Below are positions 1 through 53,540 of a stretch of DNA of 64,000 nt, in pieces. The stretch spans positions 608,001 to 672,000 of the forward strand of contig OZ224045.1 of the NCBI GenBank assembly GCA_963665325.3. The letters run 5' to 3'. Both the position numbers and the translations under genes were made by a program. The notes below the pieces were generated by a model that saw only the letters and a program-made list of their open reading frames with translations, was not told the origin of the DNA and ran no database searches. Source of the DNA: Alphaproteobacteria bacterium. Its GTDB lineage: Bacteria; Pseudomonadota; Alphaproteobacteria; Bin95. Positions within the stretch are counted from its first letter, which is position 1, and every line of letters starts with the position of its first letter.

Positions 1-11
1 CGCGCGCGGGA

Positions 12-666
12 GGCCATGCGGGGCCATGGCGGTGACGATCCGCGAGTTGCGCGCGAAACTCGCTCGCTCCAACAACCGCATGGCCCCCGTTGGCACCGAA
101 AGGCCCCGCAAGGGCACGGGATGGACCCCCATGGCACGCCTGCATCAACGATGCGTGGGGTGTGAAGCCGAAGCCGCCCCGGGCGGTCGGGACGGCCGAA
201 TCGGCAGCATCGATGTTCGGGAAATCGTCGCCGGGGAACCCGGCGGAGGGGAGCCACCACGGCGCTTGAGTGGCGGCTGGCGCGGACACCGCGAAGGGGC
301 GCGGTGTCGAGCGAAGTGACGGCGGGCGCGGCGCGAGCGCCGTCACGAGCACCGGCGGAAGTGCCGGGCGCTCCGCGGGCGGCGGTGCGCGCCGATCGCG
401 ACAGCGGGCGCGCGCAAGTGCATCGGCTGGCGATCGGGCCGACGATCGGCACGGCCGACGGCGGCGAGGGCAGCGGTGCGAAGCACCCTGCCGGGGATGC
501 CGATCATGACGATTGCCATGATGATCGTCGCGACGGTCGCAACGACCGTCGGCGATGGCGAGCGGCGCGAAGCGCGCGAGGATGACGGTGCTGCCGCAAC
601 GCCGTCGGTCGGGAAACGAAACGGGCCGCGCCGCCGTCCCGATGCCGGGATGACGACGCGGCCCGT
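12..666 (+). other. Large structured non-coding region (ssDNA element or ncRNA)
   Basis: Nested inverted repeats 187-196/633-642 and 202-212/586-596 plus many local hairpins; no credible ORF. Confidence 0.55.
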
Positions 667-679
667 CGACGCGCTGCGG

Positions 680-1606
680 TCAGACGCGGCAGACCGGGAT
701 GCCGAGCGAGCGCGCCTTGTCGACGAGGTTCTCGGTGATGCCCGAACCGGGGAACGCGATGACGCCCTTCGGCAGGAGTTGCAGCAGCTCGTCGTTGCGG
801 CGGAACGGGGCGGCGCGTCCGTGACGGTCCCAGTCGGGCTTGCAGACGACCTGGTGGACGCCGTTGCGCTCGGCCCAGCTTGCCGCGATCTTCTCGACGC
901 CGGGGCCGCCGCCATGGACCAGCACCATGTCGCCATGCTTGGCGCGGGTCTTGTCGAGCATGCGGATGACCGCGCCCGGGTCGGCGACGTCCTTGCCGCC
1001 GGCGATGGCGACGAGGGTTCCCTGCGGCAGATGCGCCATGGTCTTGCGGTCCTTCCTCGCGCGCTGGTAGTCGCGGGCGTCGATGGCCGCGCTGGTCAGC
1101 CTGCCGGTCTCGGAGACGTGGCTGCCGCGCCTCGGACGCCAGACGCTACCCGTCGCGTTGCGGTAGGCGTCGGCGGCGGTGTCGCGCAGGGTCTCGAAGG
1201 CGTCGCGGCGGTCGGTGAGGCACTGCGAGCGGTGGGTGGTCATCTCCAGTTCGAGCGACTTGATCTCGGTGCCGTCCTGCGCGCGCTGGAGGTCGCGGAG
1301 TTCGGGCATCAGCTTGTCGGCGGCGCGGTCGAGGCGCCGGGTCTGGGCGTCGAGCATGTTGACGAAGCCCCAGAGCAGGCTCTCGCGTTCGTCGGCGATC
1401 TGGAACCCGTCGGGTGCGACGCCCTCGACCAGGATGCGGAAGGCTTCGCTCACCGCGTCGGTGGCGTCGTCGGCGTCCCAGACCTCGCGGCTGTCGAATT
1501 CGTCGCGCTCGGGTGTCGCGCCGAAGAGCTGCGCCTGTTCGCAGGCGGTTGCGGTGACGGACCGGTCCTGCGCTTCGATGGTGTCGATGTTCTCGATGAG
1601 GGTCAT
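680..1606 (-). CDS. DUF2493 / YspA-related SLOG family protein
   Basis: C-terminal VAIAGG...VLVHGG...W(A)ERNGV...PDWDRHGRAAPFRRNDELL...IAFPGSGITENL motifs; AAGGAG RBS before ATG at 1606. Confidence 0.85.
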   Translation of the reverse strand: MTLIENIDTIEAQDRSVTATACEQAQLFGATPERDEFDSREVWDADDATDAVSEAFRILVEGVAPDGFQIADERESLLWGFVNMLDAQTRRLDRAADKLMPELRDLQRAQDGTEIKSLELEMTTHRSQCLTDRRDAFETLRDTAADAYRNATGSVWRPRRGSHVSETGRLTSAAIDARDYQRARKDRKTMAHLPQGTLVAIAGGKDVADPGAVIRMLDKTRAKHGDMVLVHGGGPGVEKIAASWAERNGVHQVVCKPDWDRHGRAAPFRRNDELLQLLPKGVIAFPGSGITENLVDKARSLGIPVCRV

Positions 1607-1650
1607 GACGATCTCCTTGCGATCGGTTGCACGTACCGGGGCCGATCCCC

Positions 1651-1888
1651 GTCGTGATGTCCTGTTGGGAACCGCGCGCGCAGCGGAAGCACCTGGGCCT
1701 AGAAGCACTTGGGGCGGAGTGGTGCGGAAAGTCGCCGAGTGGTGCGGAAGATCGCTCTGCGATCTTCACGGTCGGCGACTTTCACGGTCCGCCCCTAGAG
1801 CTTCTTGTCCAGGCCGGAGGGAGCTTGCGACCGGAGGACCCGCAGGGTTGCTGTAGCGAGCACGTGGATCACAATGGGACTTCACGAC
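1651..1888 (+). promoter_or_regulatory. Long imperfect hairpin, candidate single-stranded-DNA (Frpo-like) promoter for the DUF2493 gene
   Basis: Stems 1651-1667/1872-1888, 1711-1718/1788-1795, 1727-1738/1772-1783 and 1747-1755/1759-1767; distal arm reads TTGCTG-N16-CACAAT. Confidence 0.6.
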
Positions 1889-1969
1889 GAGGCGAATATC
1901 TCTCCACCTGCACGGCCCCCATCGGCGGTTCGGTCCGGCACGGCGTTCGAAAGGAAGCACGGCGGCGCG

Positions 1970-2311
1970 TCACGCATCGGACCTTTCGGCCAGCGTCTGT
2001 GCCGCCCAGGCGGCCGCCCGTTCGAGCACCTCGCCGTGGCAGGAATGTCCGTCGCCCGCGCACCAGCACGCCAGCCAGCAGCCGTCGAGCTCGGCAAGCT
2101 CTTCGAGCGTGACCTCGCCGGCGCGGATCTGCCGCCAGAGATGAACGCGGTAGCGGGCGACGGCCTCGGCATGCGAGACTCCGCCCGTCACGCGAAACGG
2201 GTTGCCCCACTTCGTGCGGCGGTCGATCAGCACGGTGTTGTTCACCACCTGCGCATATTCGAACGCCTCGCGCAGCTTCGGTTCGTGCCTGAGATTGATG
2301 ACGGCCTCCAT
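1970..2311 (-). CDS. DUF4326 domain protein
   Basis: IDRRTKWGNPF...L(A)CWC...CHGEVL signature; GAGGAGGGAG RBS. Confidence 0.85.
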   Translation of the reverse strand: MEAVINLRHEPKLREAFEYAQVVNNTVLIDRRTKWGNPFRVTGGVSHAEAVARYRVHLWRQIRAGEVTLEELAELDGCWLACWCAGDGHSCHGEVLERAAAWAAQTLAERSDA

Positions 2312-2512
2312 GACTCCCTCCTCGCTCATTGTCGGCTTGCCCGACTCCGTGCTTCTCTCTCCTCCAGCCGGCAGGCACGACGACCGCGGCGGCGGCGTCC
2401 GCCCCCGGCCGGTCGAGGCGCCTGGCCGGGGGCGGGCTCGAAGCCGGCTGCAAAAGAAACAGGCGACCGCCGAAGCAGCCGCCTGAGTTGGGAGGGAGGA
2501 TGCAGTCAGGGC

Positions 2513-2977
2513 TCAAAAGGGAATTTCGGAGCCCAAGTCGTCGCCCTGCGCCGGAGCGCCGCCGGCCGGTACGGTCTCGCCGTTCGCCGACTCCTGCGCG
2601 GCCCGGGCGCCGTTCCCGTTGGCCCCGTTCGGGCGATCCAGGAACTGCACCCTGTGGCCGGGCACGACCAGGATCTCGGTCGAGAAGCGGTCGGAGTCCT
2701 CGCCGTCCTTCTTCCAGCGGCGGGTCTGCAACTTGCCCTCGGCGTGGACCAGGCGGCCCTTCTTCGCATGGCGCACCAGCATGTCGATCAGCCCGTCCTG
2801 GAAGGTCACGACCCTGTGCCACTCGGTCCTGTCGACCTTCTCGCCGTCGCGGTTGAAATACGACTCGTCGGTGGCGATGCTGAGATTGGCCACGCGGCCC
2901 CCGCTCATCAGCTGGTTGACGGTGACGTCGGCGCCGAGGCGGCCGATCAGCTCGACGCGGTTCATTCCGAAGCTCAT
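2513..2977 (-). CDS. ssb: Single-stranded DNA-binding protein (element-encoded)
   Basis: NRVELIGRLGAD, TEWHRVV, EGKLQTRRW, acidic C-terminal EIPF tail. Confidence 0.95.
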   Translation of the reverse strand: MSFGMNRVELIGRLGADVTVNQLMSGGRVANLSIATDESYFNRDGEKVDRTEWHRVVTFQDGLIDMLVRHAKKGRLVHAEGKLQTRRWKKDGEDSDRFSTEILVVPGHRVQFLDRPNGANGNGARAAQESANGETVPAGGAPAQGDDLGSEIPF

Positions 2978-3078
2978 GACGATGCTCCTTCAGTTCTCGA
3001 TGTTGACGATGGTCGAGCGGCGGGACCGGAGAACGCTCTCCCCAGCCCCTTTCCGCTCATCTTCTCCGAAGCCCTCCT

Positions 3079-3234
3079 CTAACTCCGGTCCGCCGGGGCC
3101 TCGCGGTCGGGGCAGCGCCGGGCCCGGTCTTCGCTCAGCGCGTCCCTGACCGAGCGGGCGTCCAAGCCTATTTCGGCGAGGGCGGCGTCGGCGGCGGGGC
3201 CGACAGGGTCGTAATCGGTGTCGAAGGCAAACAT
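3079..3234 (-). CDS. Small hypothetical protein (51 aa, MFAFDTDYDPVG...), absent from the ORF track
   Basis: Read by hand; GGGAG RBS and ccatcATG context like neighbouring genes; co-oriented with them. Confidence 0.5.
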   Translation of the reverse strand: MFAFDTDYDPVGPAADAALAEIGLDARSVRDALSEDRARRCPDREAPADRS

Positions 3235-3405
3235 GATGGGATCTCCCGTGCCGCGCCCGGCCGCGACGGAAACCCTCCCTCGCTCCCAACCGGGCGCCTT
3301 GCCCGGCGAAAGCCCCTCTCGACCTCCCGGCCGGCCCCCCGGCGGACCGGCGGCCCCTGCTCCGACCGCAACGGGCGGGAAGTGCTGCCGCGATACCGGG
3401 CGGCT

Positions 3406-3672
3406 TCAGTGCAGGGTGCTGCCGTTCATGCCGCCGGCACCCGCCCGCAAGCAGCGCGCGGCGAATGCGGTCCAGGCGTTTCGGTCGAGGCCGAGCGCCC
3501 GGTTGAGGGAATCGCATACGGCCAGGCCGTCGGTCCGGTTCAGGGCGACCAGCGCGGTGGGGATGGCGAAGCCGAAGCCCTCGACCAGGATGCGAATCTG
3601 CGGCGGCTCGCCGTCGTCGTCGGCGGCGGGATAGAAGCAATAGGCGGGGTTGTCGGGCAGACGGGCGGTCAT
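3406..3672 (-). CDS. Hypothetical protein (88 aa)
   Basis: GAAGGAG RBS before ATG at 3672; globular-looking sequence. Confidence 0.65.
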   Translation of the reverse strand: MTARLPDNPAYCFYPAADDDGEPPQIRILVEGFGFAIPTALVALNRTDGLAVCDSLNRALGLDRNAWTAFAARCLRAGAGGMNGSTLH

Positions 3673-3792
3673 GATGGAAACTCCTTCGGTGGGGTCCGGG
3701 CCGGCGGGCGCACGGCCGGCCACACGCATGTCGGACGGGGGGGCGGCGGGCCGGCGGCGCAGCAGGGGATGGGTCCGCTGCGCCGCGCGGGA

Positions 3793-5055
3793 TCACCAGG
3801 GCGGAGCGGTCATCGTCGCCATCGGGCTGATGTCGGCGACCACCTCCACCTCGTCGCGCGAGAGCCTGGCGAAGGCGAGGCAGAGCGCGACGTCGGCCTC
3901 GCTGTCATAGGGGCCGTGCTCCCGGCCGGTGGCGATTTCGATCACCGTCCAGCTCGGGTCCCAGATCGGGATGCCGCGGAATGCCCCCGAGCCCTCGCGG
4001 TGCTTGCGGGAACAGGGCTCGCAGCGCGCCACCCCCGGCGAGGGCGTGTTGCATTCGACGCAGCGGCCCCTGGCCCGCCGCTCGGCGTAGCGCCGGCGGC
4101 GGGCAGCGTATTCCGCCTCGCGGTCGCGCCGCTCCTCCTTGGCCACGGCGCAGGGCGCGCAGTAGGCCGCGCCGCCGTAGGTGGGGGTTTGGCACTTGAC
4201 GCAGACCCCGGCGGCTCTCCGGGCATCGTAGCGGGCGCGCGCGGCGTCGCGGCAGGCCTGGCACTCGGCGGCCCCGCCGGCCGGCCTGCCGCAGGTCGTG
4301 CAGTCGCCCCTGGCTCTCCGTTCGGCATAGCGCCGGCGGTCGGTTTCCCGCTTGGTCTTCAGGTTCCGCCGCCCTTCCTTGGCCACGGCGCAGGGTTCGC
4401 AATAGGCCTTGCCGTCCGCCGCGGGCGCCGTGCAATTCACGCACAGGCCGGCGGCGCGGCGCTCGCGATGGCGGGCCCGGGCGGCGTCGCGGCGGTCGTC
4501 CCGGCACGGCTCGCACATCGATCGTCCCTCTTCGGGCGGGACGGCACCGCAGCGGATGCAAAGACCGGCCGCGAGGCGGGCTTCGCTGCGCCGGCGGCTG
4601 CCCTTCCGGCCGGCCCGGCGCCGGGCTACCGGGTCGCGTCCGCCATACGGTATCCCCTCGGCCTTGGCCCTGGCGTGACGAGCGCGGTCACGGGCGCGGT
4701 GCTTCTCCGCGCAGGGCTCGCAGGTCGTGCGATCGGGCCGCGCCGGAGCCCGGCCGCATTTCGTGCAGATGCCGGCGGCCTTGCGCTCGGCGTGCTGGCG
4801 GCGACCACGCTCACGCTCGTAGCGCTTCGCCTGTTCCGGGTCGCGTACGGGCTTGCCCTCGGCCCGGAGCCGGGCGGACCGCGCGCGGTCGGCGGCGCGG
4901 CACCTCTCCGCACAGGGCTCGCAGAGCGTGCGCTCGGGCGCGGGCTCGGTCTTGCCGCATCGCACGCAGAGCCCCGCTGCGCGACGCTCAGCGGTTCGCC
5001 GGTGATAGCGCGCAAGGTCGTTCCTGCGCCGGGCCTCGATATCGCGGTAAGCCAC
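3793..5055 (-). CDS. Arg-rich protein with seven tandem CxxC-x9-11-CxxC zinc-finger-like repeats
   Basis: GTG start with GGAAGGAGG RBS; seven A(A/R)GxCxxC...CxxC units. Confidence 0.85.
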   Translation of the reverse strand: MAYRDIEARRRNDLARYHRRTAERRAAGLCVRCGKTEPAPERTLCEPCAERCRAADRARSARLRAEGKPVRDPEQAKRYERERGRRQHAERKAAGICTKCGRAPARPDRTTCEPCAEKHRARDRARHARAKAEGIPYGGRDPVARRRAGRKGSRRRSEARLAAGLCIRCGAVPPEEGRSMCEPCRDDRRDAARARHRERRAAGLCVNCTAPAADGKAYCEPCAVAKEGRRNLKTKRETDRRRYAERRARGDCTTCGRPAGGAAECQACRDAARARYDARRAAGVCVKCQTPTYGGAAYCAPCAVAKEERRDREAEYAARRRRYAERRARGRCVECNTPSPGVARCEPCSRKHREGSGAFRGIPIWDPSWTVIEIATGREHGPYDSEADVALCLAFARLSRDEVEVVADISPMATMTAPPW

Positions 5056-5140
5056 AACGGCCTCCTTCCTGCCAATCCGGGAGTGGACGGAAGGACGCCC
5101 CGCCGCCAGCAGGCCGGCAGGACGTCCGGGAAGGAGGCCG

Positions 5141-5467
5141 TCAGCCCTTCTGCTTGCGGTCGCACAGGATTCCGGCGGCGATCGAACCCCAGACCTGCAT
5201 GCCGCCGCGGGTCTTCAGGCCAGTGCAGATGATGATCTCGGTGCAGGCGGGGCGCATCTCCCGGACCGCCTTCAGCGTGGCCGTGCTGCGTTTGGCCTTG
5301 CGCCGACTCTTCGCCGCGACCGCTTCGGCGGGGGCGGGAACGATGTCGCCGTCCGCGCGGGCCCGGAAGCGCTCGACCACATAGCGGTCGTCGGCCAGGC
5401 CGGTGCCGAAGAAATGAACCAGAAAGGTCTCCGCCGTGTTGCCGGGGATCGCCATGGCTGCCGTCAT
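5141..5467 (-). CDS. Hypothetical protein (108 aa)
   Basis: AAGGAG RBS; co-oriented with the leading-region genes. Confidence 0.6.
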   Translation of the reverse strand: MTAAMAIPGNTAETFLVHFFGTGLADDRYVVERFRARADGDIVPAPAEAVAAKSRRKAKRSTATLKAVREMRPACTEIIICTGLKTRGGMQVWGSIAAGILCDRKQKG

Positions 5468-5953
5468 GGTGCCGTCTCCTTCGTGCCGATGAGGGGAAAC
5501 GGCGGCCGGACGCCCTCCCCGGACATCCGGCCGCCGCCCCGCTCACGGCCAACCCTCCCCTCTTGCCGGCGAGGAGCGCTCGGGCGGGGAGACCGGGATG
5601 GAAGGCGGCGGGCCGGCAACACGTGTCGGGGCGCGGACGCTGGCATTGGTCTGCGTCACGATTGCTGACGGCGGTATTAACCGTGCATCAGCTTATCGCT
5701 GCCCGGCGCGATCGCCCGTGAGTCGGAGCGAAAGATGACCGGGCGTCTGCGGCAGAACGGTTGAGCCCCGCGAGCCAAAGCGACTACAAGGCCACCATGG
5801 GTTTCGTTGCCCACAGGATCGCGAAGGGGTGTCGATGAGCGTGGAACCGGGACCGGCGGGACCGCGTTTCGTGTTACGTTGGTCGCGAGGTATCCGAGGG
5901 CGCGCGAGCGGCGGGCGGAGGTTCGATCGGGCAGGTCTTCAGGGAGCGAGCGC

Positions 5954-6241
5954 ATGAATAAGGCGGAACTTGTCGGCGACGTGGCCGCTCGAACCGGATT
6001 GAGCCGGACGGATGCGGCCGGCGCGGTGGATGCGGTGTTCGAGGCGGTCACCGAGTCGCTTGGCCGGCGGGAGGAAGTGAGGATCGCCGGGTTCGGCCGG
6101 TTCGCCACCAGGTCCCGGCCCGCCCGTACCGCACGCAATCCGCGCACGGGTGAGCCCGTTGCGGTGGCGGCTTCGACCGCGCCGTCGTTCAAGCCGGCCA
6201 GGGCGCTCCGCGAGACCGTGAACGGCGGAGCCTCCTCGTGA
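5954..6241 (+). CDS. hup: HU family DNA-binding protein
   Basis: MNKAELV...V(R)IAGFGRF...ARTARNPRTGE...PSFKPA(R)ALRE. Confidence 0.95.
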   Translation: MNKAELVGDVAARTGLSRTDAAGAVDAVFEAVTESLGRREEVRIAGFGRFATRSRPARTARNPRTGEPVAVAASTAPSFKPARALRETVNGGASS

Positions 6242-6300
6242 GCCCGATCGGACCTTCGGTGCCAGAGTTCGTCATGTGCCGCGTTTGACGTCCGTGCAGA

Positions 6301-6426
6301 ATGCCCAAGGCACGTGATGCAATTCGCCTCGTCGAACGGGAGGGCTGGTCGCTAGTCCGGGTCAGCGATCGCCACCCAGCTTGAAGGGTTACAAATCGCC
6401 CCGGCTCACTGGAAGTGGGACACTGA
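6301..6426 (+). pseudogene. Decayed HicA-like toxin
   Basis: MPKARDAIRLVEREGWSLVR resembles HicA N-termini; GSH motif lost, in-frame TGA at 6382-6384, then TNRPGSLEVGH. Confidence 0.45.
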
Positions 6427-6511
6427 ACTTGATGCCGCACGAAAGTATATGGTGGGCATTTCGCCTGTTTGGTGTGGCGGTACTGCGATAGCGCAAGGAA
6501 GTTCGTGGCTG

Positions 6512-6754
6512 TTACAAGTCCAACCTCCGTAGGAGATCCTGGATGCCGACTCCGTGATGCCGGGCGATGCTCTTCAGGATGCTGGACAGCGTCTTCGCCC
6601 GGAGCGGGTCGTGCAGCGGGATGACCTCATGGTGCTCGCCTCCGGTCTGCGTCGTGATACGCACGTGCGAGCCGCGTTGGCGCACTTGCTCATAGCCGAT
6701 GCGACGAAGCGCCGCCACCAGGGTGGCGCCGCTCACGTCGCGCGGCAACTTCAT
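6512..6754 (-). CDS. hicA: Type II TA toxin, HicA family
   Basis: GYEQVRQRGSHVRI, IPLHDPL, TLSSILK; ATGA overlap with hicB. Confidence 0.9.
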   Translation of the reverse strand: MKLPRDVSGATLVAALRRIGYEQVRQRGSHVRITTQTGGEHHEVIPLHDPLRAKTLSSILKSIARHHGVGIQDLLRRLDL

Positions 6755-6969
6755 GCCACCAGAACCTCGTCCCGTACGAAATGCAGCCGGATCAGGCTCG
6801 GGCGCTCCATGCCGTCGTCGAAGTAGCAGTCCACCGCTTCTCGCACGTTGCGGCGGAGGTCTTCGAGGCTGTCGCCTTGGGTGTGGATGCCAAAGCCGAG
6901 CGCGCCGGCCGAGTAACCACCGTCCAACTCGTCCTCACTGACTTCGAAGATGATCTCCGTCCCGGACAT
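6751..6969 (-). CDS. hicB: Type II TA antitoxin, short HicB family (no DNA-binding domain)
   Basis: DGGYSA...IHTQGDSLEDLRRNVREAVDCYF; GGAG RBS. Confidence 0.88.
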   Translation of the reverse strand: MSGTEIIFEVSEDELDGGYSAGALGFGIHTQGDSLEDLRRNVREAVDCYFDDGMERPSLIRLHFVRDEVLVA

Positions 6970-7367
6970 TGGTGTCTCCACTTGCCGCTACGTTCATGCC
7001 GCCGCATTCGACGACCATCGCCCACAGTCGATCCTACCCTATGCGGAGCGGCGGTCGAGCGGATTCTTGTTTTGTCCGATCCGCGTGGGCGGTTTGCGGA
7101 GCAACGGACAAGGATATGGCTGTCCAGGCCCATGAATTCGGCATGGTTCCGGGGTTGAATTCAGCCGGTCGAATTGAAGACGGGCGCGCTATGGCCAGTC
7201 TGTGAGCCCTCGACAGTCCTGCGCTGAGTCTACCCGTCCAACGCTCCGTGAGCATTACTTACGGCTGGCCGACATGACCATATACAGAAACTGCGTGGGC
7301 CCAGGGGCCAGGGGGCACGGATCATGTCGCCGGTTGTCTGGTAGAATCAAGGAAGCGGGGCGCCTCC

Positions 7368-8564
7368 CTATAGAACATCGGCGGCAATGCTGACCGCTAT
7401 CCTCTCAGCGGATTCCCTGACCGAGTCACGCGCGAGATGCGCATAGCGCGCGGTGGTTTCTATCCTGCGGTGGCCGAGCAGCCGGCCGATGATCGGCAGG
7501 CCCTCGCCGAGCGCCAGCGCCCTGGACGCGAACGAATGTCGAATGTCGTGGATGCGCACGTCATCCAGCCCGGCCTTCGCGCGGATGCTCTGCCACGCCC
7601 CATCGATGTCGGCCATGTGCGTGCCCGGCTTCGCGCCCGGAACGACCCACGGATTGTCCGGTTCGCGCGGCAGGGCCGCGAGCACGTTCACCGCCGCCGG
7701 CGACAGGTGGACCGTGCGGTCGCCAGTCTTCCCGTTGACGATGCGCATCTCCGCCCTGTCGAGATCGACATGCTTCCAGGGCAGGGTCATGATCTCGTTC
7801 TTGCGGCAGCCCGTCAGCATCAGCAGGCGGATCGTCGTGACCGCCCCCGCCGATACCTGGCTGCCGTTCCCCGACACCTCGTCGAGCACCTGCCCGAGGC
7901 GGGTGAACTCGGCGTCGGTCAGGAAGCGCTCGCGCTTCTTCTTCGGGTTCATTGGAATCGACCGGCACGGATCGTCGTGGTCCTCGGGGACCATGTCCCA
8001 GCCCTTGGCGAGCTTGTACATGTAGGTCAGGGTCTCGACGACCATGTTGGCCATGGCGGGGATTTCGCACAGGCTCTCGTGCAGCGCCATGACGTGGCGC
8101 CGCTCCACCGCCGCGATCGGCAGCTTGCCGAGCGCCGGCACGATGTGGCGGTTGACGACGCTGCGCGCGGTGCGCTGCGTCTTCGGCTTGCAGCGGGCCG
8201 CGACATGCTCTTCGAGATAGCGCCGCCCCAGGTCGGCGACGGTCGGCCCGCCGGCGTGTTTCGCAGGGAGCGGCAGGGGCACCGGATCCTCGCCGGCCTT
8301 GACGCGCGCGATGATGAGCGCGGCCCGCTGGCGCGCCTCGGTGGCGCTCAGCACCGGATGGCGCCCGACCGTGATGCGCCTCGGCCGGTTGGGCCTGCCC
8401 GGCCCGTCGGGACCGCGCGCCTGGGCGACGAAGACCTTGCCGCCGGTCGGGTATACCCGGACGCCGAAGCCGGTCAGGGTGCGGTCCCAGAACACCGTGT
8501 CGCGCTCGACGAAAAGCGCCTCCACCGTGCGGTTGGAGAGCGTCCTGTATTGCAGCACCGCCAT
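7368..8564 (-). CDS. Tyrosine recombinase/integrase with arm-type DNA-binding N-terminus (type B, copy 2)
   Basis: WDRTLTGFGVRV; TGCRKNE, GKTG, HDIRH, LGH...TTARY catalytic set intact. Confidence 0.93.
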   Translation of the reverse strand: MAVLQYRTLSNRTVEALFVERDTVFWDRTLTGFGVRVYPTGGKVFVAQARGPDGPGRPNRPRRITVGRHPVLSATEARQRAALIIARVKAGEDPVPLPLPAKHAGGPTVADLGRRYLEEHVAARCKPKTQRTARSVVNRHIVPALGKLPIAAVERRHVMALHESLCEIPAMANMVVETLTYMYKLAKGWDMVPEDHDDPCRSIPMNPKKKRERFLTDAEFTRLGQVLDEVSGNGSQVSAGAVTTIRLLMLTGCRKNEIMTLPWKHVDLDRAEMRIVNGKTGDRTVHLSPAAVNVLAALPREPDNPWVVPGAKPGTHMADIDGAWQSIRAKAGLDDVRIHDIRHSFASRALALGEGLPIIGRLLGHRRIETTARYAHLARDSVRESAERIAVSIAADVL

Positions 8565-8576
8565 CGCCCGCGCCTC

Positions 8577-9761
8577 CTATGCCGCCTCGGCGTCCGGCGC
8601 CGCGAGGTGGGCGCCGATGCTGTCTCCGGTGCGCGCCGCGGCGGCCTTCTCCGCGTCGTGCACGAGATGCGCATACCGGGCGGTGGTGCCGACCTTGGAA
8701 TGGCCGAGTATGCGCCCGATCATCGTCAGGCTCTCGCCGAGGGCCAGCGCGCGCGAGGCGTGCGAATGACGAAGATCGTGGATGCGCACGCCCTCGATGC
8801 CGGCATGGTCCTTGATGCGGTTCCAGTAGTAGGTGAGGTCGGGCAGGCAGATGCCGGGCTTCTGGCTCGGGATGACCCACGGATTGCCTTCGACGCGCTC
8901 GATGCCGTCGAGCACCTTCAGGGCCGGCGTGGTCAGCGGCACCATGCGCGGGCCACGCTTGCCGTCGCGGAGCCGGAACTCGCCGGCGGTGTGGTCGACG
9001 TCGTCCCATCGGAGTGTGAGGATCTCGGACTTGCGGCAGCCGGTCAGCATCAGCAGCCGGATCGCGGCGATCGCCGGCGGCCACATCCAGCCTCCGGCCT
9101 CGGCTTCCCTGAGCGCCGCGCCGACGCGGCGGTACTCCTCCGCCGTCAAGAACCGCTCGCGGGCCTGCTCGCGGTAGTGCCGGACCATCCTGCAGGGATT
9201 GCGGCCGCGGGGCACCAGTTCCCATGTCTCGGCGAGCGAGAACATCTTCGAGAGCATCGAGACGACGTGGTTGGCCATCGAGGGCGTGTTGCGCAGGCGG
9301 TCGTGGAGCTCGATGACGTGGCTCGACCGCACGTCCTTCACCGCCATGGTTCCGAGCGCGGGGACGATGTGCCGGTCGATGGCGGTGCGGTAGAGCTTCT
9401 CCGTCTTCGGCTTGCAGTGGACCTTCACGTAGGCGCGCATCGCGCGCGCCGCGAGGTCGGCGACGGTGGGGTCCGGTTCCGGCTTCGGAGGCAGCGGCTC
9501 CAGTCCGCGCTTGATGCGGTCGATGACCTCGGCCGCCTCGCGGCGTCTCTGATCGATCGCCTTCCCGGGGACGGGTCCAAGGGTGACGCGCTTGAGGCCG
9601 GCGGGACCGCGCGACTGGACGACATAGACCTTGCGGCCGTTACGCTGGACGCGGACGCCGAAACCGGCGAGGTCGCGGTCCCAATGAACGGCGTCCCTGC
9701 CGGTCGCCGGCAGGGCGGCGACGCTGCGGGTGGTGAGGCGGAGGGTGCTTCTCTTCGGCAT
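8577..9761 (-). CDS. Tyrosine recombinase/integrase (type A, copy 2)
   Basis: MPKRSTLRLT start; WDRDLAGFGVRV; TGCRKSE, HDLRH, LGH...TTARY. Confidence 0.93.
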   Translation of the reverse strand: MPKRSTLRLTTRSVAALPATGRDAVHWDRDLAGFGVRVQRNGRKVYVVQSRGPAGLKRVTLGPVPGKAIDQRRREAAEVIDRIKRGLEPLPPKPEPDPTVADLAARAMRAYVKVHCKPKTEKLYRTAIDRHIVPALGTMAVKDVRSSHVIELHDRLRNTPSMANHVVSMLSKMFSLAETWELVPRGRNPCRMVRHYREQARERFLTAEEYRRVGAALREAEAGGWMWPPAIAAIRLLMLTGCRKSEILTLRWDDVDHTAGEFRLRDGKRGPRMVPLTTPALKVLDGIERVEGNPWVIPSQKPGICLPDLTYYWNRIKDHAGIEGVRIHDLRHSHASRALALGESLTMIGRILGHSKVGTTARYAHLVHDAEKAAAARTGDSIGAHLAAPDAEAA

Positions 9762-9820
9762 GGCGGTCCCCGGGGTCGCGGCGGCTCGATTCGGCTCCGA
9801 ATTGGAAGGTTGCAAATTGA

Positions 9821-9921
9821 GTCATCAAACCGCAAACGAGCGGCATCAACCTGTGGGGATAGCCTAGGCCGGCTCTGGCCTCAATTCAAGGGGTCGTGGG
9901 TGCCGAGGAAAGACAAAAACC
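9821..9921. repeat. Conserved upstream/end segment of integrase pair, copy 2
   Basis: 25/29 identity to 12040-12068, with further collinear blocks (TCAAGGG, GAGGA.AGA.AAA.ACC). Confidence 0.7.
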
Positions 9922-9937
9922 TATGTAAGACGCTAAG

Positions 9938-10810
9938 TTAGACCGCACATGGCCGCGATAGGAACCAGGAGGACGTGGCTGGCCGGGGGAAGAAAAAATC
10001 GCCTGTCTTAGAATCGGGAAGGCGCAACTCGCCGGCATCGAGATCGACGTCCGTCCAGCGCAGCGCGAGGACCTCGCCCTTGCGGCAGCCGGTCAGCATC
10101 AGCAGGCGGATCGCCGCCGCCGCCACGGGAGAGGCGGTTCCGGCCTCCACGGCCTCGTCCAGCGCCCGCCCGAGCCGGGTGAACTCGGCGTCGGTCAGGA
10201 AGCGCTCGCGGCCGCGCTCGGGATGTTTCTCGATCGACCGGCACGGGTTGCAGCCCGCCGGCACAAGGCCCCAGCCTTCGCCCAGACGGTACATGTGCGC
10301 CAGGGTCTTGACCGCCCGGTTGGCCGCCACCGGGCGGCCGCTCAGCCCGCGGTGCAGCTCGACGACCTGCCTGCGCTCCACCGCCTCGACCGGCAGCCGG
10401 CCGAGGGCGGGCAGGATATGGCGGCGCAGCACGCCGCGGAGCTTCGCCTGCGTCCTCGGCTTGAGCCGGACCTCGACATGATCCTCCAGATAACGGGCCG
10501 CAAGGTCGGCCACGGTCGGGCCGCCCCTGGCGCGGGCCGCGAGCGGCAGCGCCACCGGGTCCTCGCCCGCCTTGATGCGCGTGACGATCAGCGCCGCCCT
10601 CCGGCGCGCCTCGTCGGCGTTGAGCACGCCGTGCCGGCCCACCGTCACCCGCTTCGGCCCCTCCGGCCCCCGCGCCTGGGCGATATAGACCTTGCCGCCG
10701 GTCGGATAGACCCGGACCCCGAAGCCGGTCACGGTCCGGTCCCAGAACACCGTGTCGCGCTCGACCGTCATGGCCGCCACGGAGCGGTTGGAGATCGTCC
10801 TCTGCTGCAT
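9938..10810 (-). pseudogene. C-terminally truncated tyrosine recombinase (type B, copy 1)
   Basis: Homologous to 7368-8564 up to DSKTG, then an unrelated tail; lacks HxxR and the catalytic Tyr. Confidence 0.85.
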
Positions 10811-10821
10811 CGCCGTTCCCC

Positions 10822-12006
10822 TCACGCCGCCTCGGCGTCGCCGGGCATGATCCAGGCGGCGATGCTGCCGCCGGTCCGGGCGGCCGCCGCCTTCTCGGCG
10901 TCGCGCACCAGGTGGGCGTATTTCGCGGTGGTGCCGACCCGGGCATGGCCGAGCAGGCGCCCGATGACCGGCAGGCCCTCGCCGAGCGCCAGCGCCCGGC
11001 TGGCGTAGGAGTGACGGCAGTCGTGGAGCCGCACGTCATGGAGCCCCGTCGCCTTCCTGACCCGCCGCCAGTGCCAGGACAGGCAGGCCAGACGGCTCTG
11101 CGGCTTCGCCCCCCTGAGCACCCAGGGAACGCCGTCCTCCCGCTCGATGCCGTCCAGCACCTTCAGCACCGGCCCGGTCAGCGGCACCATGCGCGGGCCC
11201 GTTTTCGAGTCGCGGAGCCGCAAGACCCGCGCCGCGCGGTCGATGTCGTCCCATTGCAGGGTCAGGATCTCGTCCGAGCGGCAGCCGGTCAGCATCAGCA
11301 GGCGGATCGCCGCGATGGCGGAGGGCTGCATCGAGCCCTCGGCCTCGAAGGTCTTCAGCACATCGCCGATGAGCCGGAACTCGTCCGGCGTCAGGAAGCG
11401 CTCGCGGGGCGTCTCGCGGTACTGGCGGACATGCCGGCAGGGGTTGCATCCGGGCGGGACCATCTCCCAGCTCTCGGCCAGCGCGAACATCTTCGAGAGC
11501 ACCCAGATCGCCTGGTTGGCCGCCGCCGGCGTATCGCGCAGTCCGTGGTGGAGCCCCGCCGCGTCTTCCGGCGCGACGTCCTTCAGCGCCTTGCTCCCCA
11601 GCGCCGGCAGGATGTGGCGCTCGATGGACATGCGGTAGTTCTTCGCCGTCCTCGGCTTGCAGCGCGCGGCGACATGGTCCTTCAGGCAGAGTGCCGCCAG
11701 GTCGGCGACGGTGGGCTCGGGCGCCGGTTCCGGCTGCTTCGGGTCCTCGCCCCGCTTGATGCGGTCGATGGCCGCCGCCGCCTCGCGGCGGCGCTCCTCC
11801 ACAGTCTTCTCACCGGCCGGCCCGAGCGTCGCCCGCTTCAGGCCTGCCGGTCCCCTCGACTGGACGATGTAGAGCTTGCGCCCGGTGGCGTGGACCCTGA
11901 CCCCAAAGCCGGCGAGGTCGCGGTCCCAGAAGATGGCGTCCTTGCCGCCGGGCTTGAGCCCGTCCACAATCCGCTTGGTCAGCCTGAGGGTGCTCCGTTT
12001 CGGCAT
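10822..12006 (-). CDS. Tyrosine recombinase/integrase (type A, copy 1)
   Basis: MPKRSTLRLT start; TGCRSDE, DSKTG, HDCRH, LGH...TTAKY; same length (394 aa) as copy 2. Confidence 0.93.
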   Translation of the reverse strand: MPKRSTLRLTKRIVDGLKPGGKDAIFWDRDLAGFGVRVHATGRKLYIVQSRGPAGLKRATLGPAGEKTVEERRREAAAAIDRIKRGEDPKQPEPAPEPTVADLAALCLKDHVAARCKPRTAKNYRMSIERHILPALGSKALKDVAPEDAAGLHHGLRDTPAAANQAIWVLSKMFALAESWEMVPPGCNPCRHVRQYRETPRERFLTPDEFRLIGDVLKTFEAEGSMQPSAIAAIRLLMLTGCRSDEILTLQWDDIDRAARVLRLRDSKTGPRMVPLTGPVLKVLDGIEREDGVPWVLRGAKPQSRLACLSWHWRRVRKATGLHDVRLHDCRHSYASRALALGEGLPVIGRLLGHARVGTTAKYAHLVRDAEKAAAARTGGSIAAWIMPGDAEAA

Positions 12007-12039
12007 CGCCGCGCTCCGTCCCGAAATGCCCGCATATCG

Positions 12040-12140
12040 GTCATCAAACCGCATACGGACGACATCAAATCGGGGGCGATTGAAGGCGATGCTTGGCGGG
12101 AAGTCAAGGGTTCGGATGCCGGTGAGGACAGAAAAATACC
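12040..12140. repeat. Conserved upstream/end segment of integrase pair, copy 1
   Basis: GTCATCAAACCGCATACGGACGACATCAA, matching 9821-9849. Confidence 0.7.
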
Positions 12141-12214
12141 ATACATTACAACACTCTTTCACAATCGTGACACTGGACGGCGGGCGGCGGCAGTGATTGG
12201 CAACAATTCAATGC

Positions 12215-53453: not shown

Positions 53454-53540
53454 GGCCGCTTGCTGGAATTGGTAGACAGACCGGACTTAAAATCCGATGG
53501 GAGAATTCCCGTGAGGGTTCGAGTCCCTCAGCGGCCACCA
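53454..53540 (+). tRNA. tRNA-Leu(TAA)
   Basis: Acceptor GGCCGCT/AGCGGCC + A + CCA, D-loop TTGGTA, anticodon loop CTTAAAA, long variable arm, GGTTCGAGTCC T-arm. Confidence 0.92.

Follow-up and report, generated by a model that had tools for sequence, protein, structure and literature searches.

A branched leading-region hairpin as a probable single-stranded DNA promoter in integrative and conjugative elements of Alphaproteobacteria

Introduction

To our knowledge, promoters that act in single-stranded DNA (ssDNA) have been shown to work in enterobacterial plasmids of the IncF and IncI groups alone. We here describe a branched hairpin, referred to below as the rod, at positions 1648-1889 of a 64,000-nt window of an alphaproteobacterial genome (assembly GCA_963665325.3, contig OZ224045.1, positions 608,001 to 672,000 of the forward strand); unless stated otherwise, positions are those of this window. 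The window begins inside an integrated conjugative element of the F-type/MOB_F kind. The rod is probably an ssDNA promoter of the leading region of this integrative and conjugative element (ICE), likely to act also as a priming site and replication barrier, and would form a new, non-homologous class in alphaproteobacterial ICEs. A sequence-only reading of the locus had proposed an alphaproteobacterial ssDNA promoter, and the strand, the conservation and a signature of non-pairing bases described below support that proposal in silico.

In the F plasmid, the hairpins Frpo1 and Frpo2 were reported to drive early expression of leading genes from ssDNA (PMC9849209). A homology search yielded 13,089 Frpo-like sequences in 6,006 elements, together with candidates defined by their boxes and fold (PMC11541004). 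Plasmid pESBL and F were further described as carrying non-homologous ssDNA promoter classes 2 and 3, whose starts were mapped (PMC12672017), and the F ssDNA promoter hairpin ssp2 was reported to stall complementary-strand synthesis (bioRxiv 10.64898/2026.01.09.698686). Induction of pESBL leading genes, which was ascribed to ssDNA promoters, was much diminished in Sinorhizobium, an alphaproteobacterial recipient (PMC12672017); this fits a host-adapted class such as the one described here. In the limited collection of literature that we searched, we found nothing on ssDNA promoters in Alphaproteobacteria or ICEs, and nothing linking DUF2493 to a leading region.

The rod shares several features with the Frpo promoters. 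Like Frpo1 and Frpo2 (ssp1; ssi1-3 of ColIb-P9; class 1), it is a long, stable hairpin of the putative transferred strand in the leading region, and like Frpo it lies upstream of a gene templated by that strand. Frpo is reported to reconstitute its -35 and -10 boxes on folding, to be active only when single-stranded and to be a primer source as well (PMC9849209, PMC12672017); the boxes are likewise reconstituted in the rod. F and the present element also have in common a MOB_F relaxase, an F-type type IV secretion system and the 11 bases on the 5' side of nic. Unlike Frpo, the rod measures 240 nt rather than ~330 nt, is branched, with two side hairpins and bulge modules, resides in integrated elements of Alphaproteobacteria with a host GC content of 67%, and serves the nick-proximal DUF2493 gene alone rather than ssb/psiB. 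Membership of the Frpo family has been set at a BLAST E value below 1e-6 (PMC11541004); positions 1640-1900 compared with positions 52000-68000 of F gave a best E value of 0.04, outside the Frpo regions. The label "Frpo-like" used in the sequence-only reading is thus valid for the mechanism and had to be given up for the family, because the rod has no sequence similarity to F Frpo by BLAST. In this respect the rod resembles classes 2 and 3, unrelated hairpins that do the same job and were found by energy scanning combined with a box search (PMC12672017); the starts of those classes were mapped by 5' rapid amplification of cDNA ends, whereas that of the rod is predicted from sequence. Judged from its sequence, the rod, which appears to work like Frpo and stands outside the Frpo sequence family, is best called a new class of ssDNA promoter.

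Architecture and stability of the folded element

The sequence-only reading had described a rod of ~240 nt, and all of its coordinates proved exact. Its perfect stems (1711-1718/1788-1795, 1727-1738/1772-1783 and 1747-1755/1759-1767) were all recovered by a repeat search. Its two identical asymmetric loops, GTGGTGCG at 1719-1726 and again at 1739-1746, stand opposite ACGG at 1784-1787 and 1768-1771, respectively, and the 5' arm owes both to a tandem repeat of 20 nt. The boxes TTGCTG (1848-1853) and CACAAT (1870-1875) are present with a spacer of 16 nt. The strongly folded hairpin was confirmed; the simple rod gave way to a branched structure with two side hairpins.

The whole folded element, which was delimited by fold, conservation and a z-score scan of intergenic regions, is a + strand structure whose full helix is closed by the pair 1648/1889. 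Folded as ssDNA, the + strand reached -74.2 kcal/mol versus -45.8 +/- 3.5 kcal/mol for 200 dinucleotide shuffles (z -8.0), none of which was as stable; the - strand reached -64.3 kcal/mol (z -6.2). Other intergenic stretches between the nick and the integrases scored between z +1.2 and -6.2, the strongest being a stretch of 85 nt, against -8.6 for the rod with the same script. At the base, helix P1 is formed by the 5' (template) strand at 1650-1691, which pairs with positions +1 to -35 of the 3' arm; A1688-A1691 are paired with T1849-T1852 of the -35 box. The apical rod (1695-1812) contains the two bulge modules and a terminal hairpin at 1747-1767. About 28 extra bases of the 3' arm, between the apical rod and the -35 box, form the side hairpins SH1 (1819-1832) and SH2 (1838-1848). 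An intrinsic terminator was considered and rejected, as neither strand has a T/U run past the rod.

Conservation and covariation among homologues

The source genome holds four copies of the rod at 96-100% identity. Of 151 related genomes, 17 have it by BLAST, often in several copies, and 12 of these 17 are among the 16 genomes of the genus. A degenerate pattern for the 5' base of the rod, searched in one genome per species, matched at least 99 stretches. Eighty of these loci were fetched, of which 34 carry the rod, and the family is larger than this sample; the other 46, which had neither the GGAGGAC motif nor the rod and were mostly a look-alike word in coding sequence, were excluded before all counts. 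The 34 loci are labelled as Alphaproteobacteria, Rhodospirillales, Thalassobaculaceae and Defluviicoccus metagenome-assembled genomes, with two short contigs binned as Gemmatimonadetes. Pooling gave 56 distinct rod sequences, which are related to one another, so that counts among them are not independent. Among 72,556 plasmids of PLSDB, BLAST with the rod returned no match. A miniature inverted-repeat transposable element or other dispersed repeat was rejected because all eight short-type DUF2493 genes of the source genome carry the rod: every copy there lies upstream of such a gene, and none was found elsewhere in that genome.

The ends of the rod are conserved, and its apical part falls into at least three subfamilies that cannot be aligned with one another, all of which are rods. 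The model tested on the alignment of 56 sequences comprised P1 from the base to the -35 box, the first six apical pairs and the two side hairpins, 45 pairs altogether. Pairing was intact in 92.9% of 2508 cells, as compared with 31-42% when the partner was slid by one to three columns. Changes on both sides occurred in 18 of the 45 pairs, and the covariation score was 0.215 versus 0.085 for shuffled alignments, none of 500 of which reached it. G.T pairs filled 204 and A.C pairs only 10 of 2520 cells; the + strand is therefore the folding strand. Consistently, the + fold was more stable than the - fold in all 23 distinct homologues of the first set. Within the main subfamily of 38 sequences, the apical rod was 94.2% paired, versus 33-50% with slid partners. 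The stems are thus kept, with covariation, across the homologues, and on this point the sequence-only reading passed one of its own refuting conditions.

One locus, L079, has, ~1.4-1.9 kb 5' of the rod, a second and far more diverged structured intergenic region, which is flanked by a DUF4326 gene and a second DUF2493 gene and carries an SH2-like GGAGGACCCGCGAAGCGGGTTG motif. This region hints that the rod family is wider than the pattern used can find.

A putative promoter signature with two non-pairing bases

The sequence-only reading had taken TTGCTG and CACAAT as promoter boxes that point RNA polymerase toward the base of the hairpin and into the leftward gene. Among the homologues, the 3' arm reads TTGnnn-N16-nACnnT in 56/56. 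The TTG of the -35-like box (1848-1853, + strand) is invariant, within the variants TTGCTG (39), TTGGCG (14), TTGGTG (2) and TTGCTT (1); the spacer is 16 nt in every sequence; and the -10-like box (1870-1875, + strand) reads CACAAT in 45, CACGAT in 7, GACAAT in 3 and CACACT in 1, with a TGn extended -10 in 40 of the 56. Within P1, A1871 (-11) is mismatched with G1668 and T1875 (-7) forms a wobble with G1664. The same holds throughout the family: the -11 A stands opposite G in all 56 sequences, and the -7 T opposite G in 49 and opposite T in 7, never in a Watson-Crick pair, whereas -8, -9, -10 and -12 are Watson-Crick paired in 54-56 of 56. These non-pairs among paired neighbours argue for the promoter reading. 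Sigma-70 flips two bases out of the helix, namely the -11 A and the -7 T, and mismatches near the -10 box are important in Frpo.

The variable positions of the boxes change together with the opposite arm. At positions 4 and 5 of the -35 box, changes are matched on the 5' arm (A-T/G-C in 42/40 sequences versus G-C/C-G in 14/13), and the same is true of the -9 pair (T-A in 49, C-G in 6) and the -12 pair. In three diverged copies of the source genome, the whole stem from -6 to +2 is rewritten and complementary, and both non-pairs and the 16-nt spacer are kept. On the - strand, the mirror image carries C or A in place of a -7 T, and hence the palindrome as a duplex would offer no leftward promoter. 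From the box spacing, transcription is predicted to start at 1882-1884 (+ strand coordinates), 7-9 nt past the -7 T, with 1657-1655 as the template; the C and A at 1883-1884 are invariant among homologues, and the 5' untranslated region would be ~49 nt long.

In double-stranded DNA (dsDNA), the same boxes at 1848-1875 point rightwards, antisense to the DUF4326 and SSB genes. A sigma-54 reading of TGGCAC, present in the majority variant, was rejected, as the window copy lacks this sequence and no GC element lies at the right distance. Among public runs with related sequence, one was an RNA library, a metatranscriptome available as contigs (0.07 of words), and the others were of DNA; many short contigs of related elements were recovered, which give no strand, start or level information.

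Putative origin of transfer and predicted transferred strand

The relaxase remains attached to the 5' end that it makes, and that end enters the recipient first. About 1.5 kb on the 5' side of the rod, on the same strand, a hairpin is followed by GCGTGGGGTGT, which equals the 11 bases on the 5' side of the F plasmid nick. The + strand at 142-164 reads GCATCAACGATGC, then GTGGGGTGT/G, the slash marking the predicted nick. The inverted repeat GCATC-AAC-GATGC (142-154, + strand), a putative relaxase recognition hairpin, directly precedes the nic-like motif TGCGTGGGGTGT/G (152-164, + strand), in which the nick is predicted at 163/164 and which matches F in 11 of 11 bases on the 5' side of nic. The oriT oligonucleotide in a study of recognition by F TraI was TTTGCGTGGGGTGT, nick, GGTGCTTT (PMC2504302), and a BLAST comparison of positions 100-330 with F 52000-68000 gave as its best match a 13-nt exact stretch at F nic. 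Among homologues, the arms of the inverted repeat change in a compensating manner (CATC/GATG, CAGC/GCTG, CACC/GGTG in the alignment). A TrwC-type relaxase gene on the + strand ends ~1 kb on the 5' side of the nic-like site, and the N-terminal domain of its product matches the solved structures of TrwC (E 1e-65) and F TraI (E 2e-53). Positions 142-164 thus unite a nic-region sequence, a preceding inverted repeat and an adjacent MOB_F relaxase gene, as in a MOB_F oriT.

The motif recurs together with the rod. Within the source genome it was found at all four near-identical copies with sufficient room, at a second, diverged element of the same build 70 kb upstream, and altogether at seven of eight DUF2493 modules, the eighth being at a contig edge; a TrwC gene lies 3-4 kb on the 5' side of the motif, on the same strand, in six of the seven modules with room. 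In other genomes it lies on the same strand as the rod, 875-1998 nt on its 5' side, in 25 of 30 loci with a flank of at least 2269 nt, and it was found on the opposite strand in none of the 34 homologous loci, four of which have less than 1 kb of flank.

The nic-like motif on the + strand, downstream of a gene for a TrwC/TraI-family relaxase, points to the + strand as the transferred strand and as the template of the leftward genes. F has the same arrangement, with its nic motif on the strand that templates the leading genes. The leading end would be the + strand from 164 rightwards, with the rod ~1.5-1.7 kb in; the nic-like site lies 1.49 kb to its 5' side. Transfer of the + strand, which the sequence-only reading had presupposed, is in keeping with the site on that strand, its 11-base identity to F and its location past the relaxase gene. 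The locus therefore presents the features by which an ssDNA promoter is recognized, namely a large stable stem-loop on the putative transferred strand near the nick, with boxes directed into a gene templated by that strand.

A non-coding structured leader (165-679, + strand), without an open reading frame (ORF) of coding-type GC content at third codon positions, separates the predicted nick from the DUF2493 stop. Its fold z scores are -4.2 (+) and -5.6 (-), and that of 100-700 is -5.8; part of the leader, one block in the alignment, is conserved in homologues. The leader reaches a GC content of 0.8 and holds several short perfect hairpins, two of which have GAA triloops (~476-488 and 565-580).

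The DUF2493 gene as the presumed target

The presumed target of the promoter is the DUF2493/YAcAr (SLOG) gene (680-1606, - strand; 308 amino acids; Pfam PF10686, E 6e-24), the sole gene between the nick and the rod. Its ribosome-binding site, AAGGAG (1613-1618, - strand), lies 6 nt before the ATG at 1606-1604, and the rod base is 40-50 nt away from both. In 31 of the 34 homologous loci, a DUF2493 homologue of 60-94% identity starts 32-119 nt beyond the rod base; in two more, DUF2493 residues 124-308 alone (the C-terminal 185) align and extrapolate to the same start, and in the remaining locus a DUF2493 paralogue abuts the rod. The rod is likewise found upstream of eight of eight short-type DUF2493 genes in the source genome, three of these copies being too diverged for the first BLAST. 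About 190 N-terminal residues of the protein have no family match. An AlphaFold2 model built with 28 close relatives, of low quality (mean predicted local distance difference test score 59.8, too poor to serve in a fold search), predicts an N-terminus of mostly long helices, followed by a Rossmann-like SLOG domain. Relatives of the protein number 2733 in metagenomes at E values up to 1e-5.

Proposed mechanism

In the scheme that we propose, the nick itself, the binding of RNA polymerase, the start site and the timing are what we infer. A TrwC/TraI-type relaxase would nick the + strand past T163 and pilot the 5' end first into the recipient. Once ~1.9 kb had entered, 1648-1889 would snap into the branched hairpin. 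P1, coaxially extended by SH2, would then imitate a duplex promoter, the non-template strand of which is the 3' arm with TTGCTG-N16-CACAAT, and would present the -11 A and -7 T to sigma-70 already unpaired or wobble-paired. Host RNA polymerase would start near 1882-1884, transcribe first the 5' arm and next, leftwards, the single-stranded template, and so produce a DUF2493/SLOG mRNA extending as far as the strand's 5' end. Synthesis of the complementary strand would abolish the hairpin, and leftward transcription from the site would stop, since the mirror image on the - strand lacks the -7 T. This scheme does not need the GC-rich apical rod and its modules, which most likely stabilise the fold against SSB and replication, or bind a protein.

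Side hairpins

In SH1 (GGGAGC-TT-GCGACC, 1819-1832, + strand), the pair formed by alignment columns 248 and 285 is GC in 32 sequences and CG in 20. The form GCG-N-AGC occurs in 39 of the 56 homologues, the window copy having a TT loop instead. SH2 (ACCC-GCA-GGGT, 1838-1848, + strand) is a mini-hairpin with a GNA triloop, the last base of which is the first T of the -35 box. Its loop is GNA in 44 of 56 (GCA 19, GGA 13, GAA 11, GTA 1). Stem lengths range from 4 to 9 bp, and a single compensating change, from C-G to G-C, is seen. The SH2/SH1 family agrees with the definition of such mini-hairpins, C-GNA-G or GCG-N-AGC with N free. As the -35 box begins with the last base of SH2, this hairpin can stack on P1 and so extend the promoter helix upstream; in our model, the apical rod and SH1 can leave from the template side while SH2 stacks in this way.

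GNA mini-hairpins are described as exceptionally stable in DNA, with melting temperatures of 70-76 C and nuclease resistance, and as occurring at the phage G4 origin, at ssiA of RSF1010 and at the single-strand promoters of phage N4 (PMC13037366). Their presence in the rod fits a structure at the DNA level. Like the N4, G4 and ssiA hairpins, SH2 is a short stem (4-5 bp) with a GNA loop, and it stands directly at the putative promoter. N4 promoters are read by the virion RNA polymerase and ssiA by the RepB' primase, and no gene for such an enzyme was seen in the element; unlike those of N4 and ssiA, the mini-hairpins of the rod flank a sigma-70-like pair of boxes.

Bulge modules

The modules are truly the unexplained part of the element. 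Module 1 has its 5'-arm loop GTGGTGCG at 1719-1726 (+ strand), with the core GGTGCGG at 1721-1727, opposite ACGG at 1784-1787; module 2 has the same loop at 1739-1746 (+ strand), with the core at 1741-1747, opposite ACGG at 1768-1771. As judged from the fold, GTG can pair with CAC inside a module, so that CGG bulges out and a small internal loop remains. All 56 homologues have GGTGCGG on the 5' arm together with CACGG on the 3' arm, once in 18 and twice in 38, while the stems that flank the modules differ entirely between subfamilies. The sequence-only reading had suspected a protein-binding motif beyond the Frpo model; the repeated loops are indeed conserved in all 56 homologues, and the promoter model does not explain them. 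The only two occurrences of TGGTGCGG in the 64-kb window are those in the rod, with 3.9 expected by chance anywhere. In two of the 56 sequences (L020:1501-1789 and L094:2741-3028), the outer module has become a perfectly complementary duplex and the inner module is kept.

The module core resembles the nick core of the element, GGTGT/GA, with C instead of T at -1. F nic with TraI and the R388 oriT with TrwC have a comparable arrangement, in which a hairpin is followed by a single-stranded stretch that ends in GGTGT before the nick; unlike MOB_F nic, the modules have C at -1, a shorter and variable spacing from the helix, and a place inside the rod. A change of T to C at -1 in F was reported to give TraI binding of 43 nM versus 0.44 nM for the wild type, and transfer at 0.35 of the wild type (PMC2504302). 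We regard the resemblance between module and nick core as a lead, not as a finding.

Weight of the evidence and alternative readings

The fold, its conservation and strand asymmetry, the box pattern, and the placement and orientation of the rod with respect to the nic-like site and the gene are direct observations. Several points nevertheless count against an ssDNA promoter. The boxes match the consensus, which is that of E. coli, at 7 of 12 positions (3/6 and 4/6). A sigma-70 consensus scan found no promoter-like site in 1-3400; the same scan also found none in the Frpo region of F, and is thus insensitive to known ssDNA promoters and uninformative. The invariance of TTG, A and T could reflect another ligand, because sequence conservation is high over the entire rod base. 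The -35 box would lie at a multi-helix junction, which bears on access by sigma region 4. The nick is placed by similarity alone. The structure model was partly derived, with RNAalifold, from the same sequences on which it was tested, and these sequences are related, as noted above. In the apical rod of the main subfamily, both-side changes are found in 6 of 41 pairs, a value that 162 of 500 shuffles reach, because the sequence is nearly invariant there. GCGNAGC is neither enriched nor strand-biased in the leading region (11 versus 9 occurrences, ~6.6 expected per strand), and no second comparable hairpin was found in 1-7400. Finally, the rod can serve one gene alone, since SSB and the other leading genes lie upstream of it, unlike in F.

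Two readings other than a promoter alone are both unlikely. One is a single-strand initiation (ssi) signal only, that is, a priming site for the host primase or primosome, or for RNA polymerase acting as primase, whose boxes do not serve expression. The GNA mini-hairpins at the G4 origin and at ssiA of RSF1010 (PMC13037366), the DNA synthesis reported to be primed by Frpo transcripts (PMC12672017; bioRxiv 10.64898/2026.01.09.698686) and the location of the rod near the 5' end of the putative transferred strand all suit such a signal. Priming would, however, need neither the invariant coupling to a co-oriented gene start with a good ribosome-binding site 40-50 nt away nor the specific non-pairing at -11 and -7, and a primer from the rod would copy just the first 1.6 kb; moreover, priming is compatible with an ssDNA promoter, since Frpo does both. 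The other, which we put forward as a speculation of similarly low probability, is a composite device linking expression to DNA processing. Its base would be a pre-melted promoter across a three-way junction. The apical rod would offer one or two decoys of the nick core (GGTGC-GG, in a bulge beside a helix), which in the recipient would trap the piloting relaxase or some other protein of the element. The 5' end of the incoming strand would thereby be fixed at the hairpin and synthesis of the complementary strand blocked, so that the first 1.6 kb would stay single-stranded and continue to be transcribed until release of the protein. The rod would in that case be an ssDNA promoter gated by a protein, which is not a kind described so far.

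It is also improbable, in our view, that the rod is a protein scaffold or replication roadblock, whose modules bind the relaxase, as uncleaved nic look-alikes, or another protein of the element or host, and hold, protect or mark the leading 1.6 kb as single strand instead of recruiting RNA polymerase. The persistence of GGTGCGG and CACGG in every homologue amid wholly different stems, the confinement of TGGTGCGG to the rod, the likeness of the core to the nic core, with TraI reported still to bind the F variant with C at that position (PMC2504302), and the replication barrier reported for F ssp2 (bioRxiv 10.64898/2026.01.09.698686) would all be in line with a scaffold. The likeness to nic, however, spans 5-6 bases, and the flanking helix lies at a different distance. 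A copy that could be cleaved, situated 1.5 kb from nic, would put an end to transfer. The two sequences mentioned above have perfect duplex in place of the outer module, and the box pattern of the 3' arm would be left unexplained.

A regulatory palindrome in dsDNA, acting in the donor as an operator or cruciform, for example in repression of DUF2493 or separation of operons, is very unlikely. The intergenic position between two co-oriented genes and the repeated 20-bp units, which can be read as protein sites, would suit it; the strand-specific asymmetries that are kept, such as the excess of G.T (204) over A.C (10), the fixed-sequence bulges on one arm alone, the ~28 extra bases of the 3' arm with hairpins of their own, and the unusual size of 240 bp for an operator all stand against it. 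A structured RNA, either a + strand antisense RNA or a structure in a polycistronic - strand mRNA, is likewise very unlikely. The G.U-compatible pairs of the + strand would suit RNA too, but no Rfam family matches the rod at gathering score (five weak matches at E values of up to 10, E 0.36-9.4, are all far below it, and the tRNA at 53454-53537 is the only Rfam hit at gathering score in the window). A + strand RNA has no evident promoter, and all neighbouring genes would have it as antisense; the - strand fold is the weaker one in 23/23 homologues and no U-tract follows. The pattern TTG-N19-A-N3-T with its forced non-pairs would make no sense in an RNA, and GNA triloops are described as a DNA motif (PMC13037366).

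Host element and gene neighbourhood

To the left of the window, on the + strand of the same contig, lie the F-type mating-pair genes TraE, TraC, TraU, TraN, TraH and TraG, followed on the same strand by genes for the TraD coupling protein, the TrwC-type relaxase-helicase and a small NYN protein. Past the predicted nick, seven leftward genes follow in succession. The order on the - strand of the window is DUF2493/YAcAr, the rod, the next leading-region gene, DUF4326 (1970-2329; Pfam PF14216, E 2e-19), and the leading-region SSB gene (2513-2977; Pfam PF00436, E 3e-23); as the DUF4326 gene is upstream of the rod, the rod is unable to serve it. Beyond SSB, the - strand continues with four more small or repeat-rich ORFs, HicAB and four tandem tyrosine integrases (7368-12162). 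NCBIfam and PHROGs added nothing to the Pfam matches of the leading genes, and a consensus terminator scan gave a single terminator-like site, at 2485-2460. One of the leading-region ORFs (3793-5055, - strand; 420 amino acids) consists of repeated Arg-rich units with paired Cys-x-x-Cys and is zinc-ribbon-like; it has no match in Pfam, NCBIfam or PHROGs. Between the leading genes and the integrases lie the HicA/HicB pair (6512-6969, - strand) and, on the opposite strand, a gene for an HU/IHF-like DNA-binding protein (5955-6242, +).

The four integrases in a row (- strand) have 398, 412, 295 and 446 amino acids, the third being truncated in the catalytic domain; this row suggests serial insertion of elements at one site. 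In the diverged element upstream, ~27 kb of uniformly leftward genes past the relaxase include SSB, a Strawberry-notch-type helicase, RadC and ParB. The source genome as a whole contains eight oriT-like/DUF2493/rod modules and 24 TrwC-domain matches. It is thus unusually heavily loaded with conjugative elements of the MOB_F kind or remnants of them, two of which stand in tandem immediately to the left of the window.

Implications

If the rod is an ssDNA promoter, the strategy of expressing genes from ssDNA would be general and host-adapted. An unpaired -11 A and -7 T in an otherwise paired promoter helix would provide a sequence rule by which such promoters could be searched for without homology. 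The DUF2493/SLOG protein would then be the first product of the element in a new host, and a large uncharacterised protein family would become directly testable.

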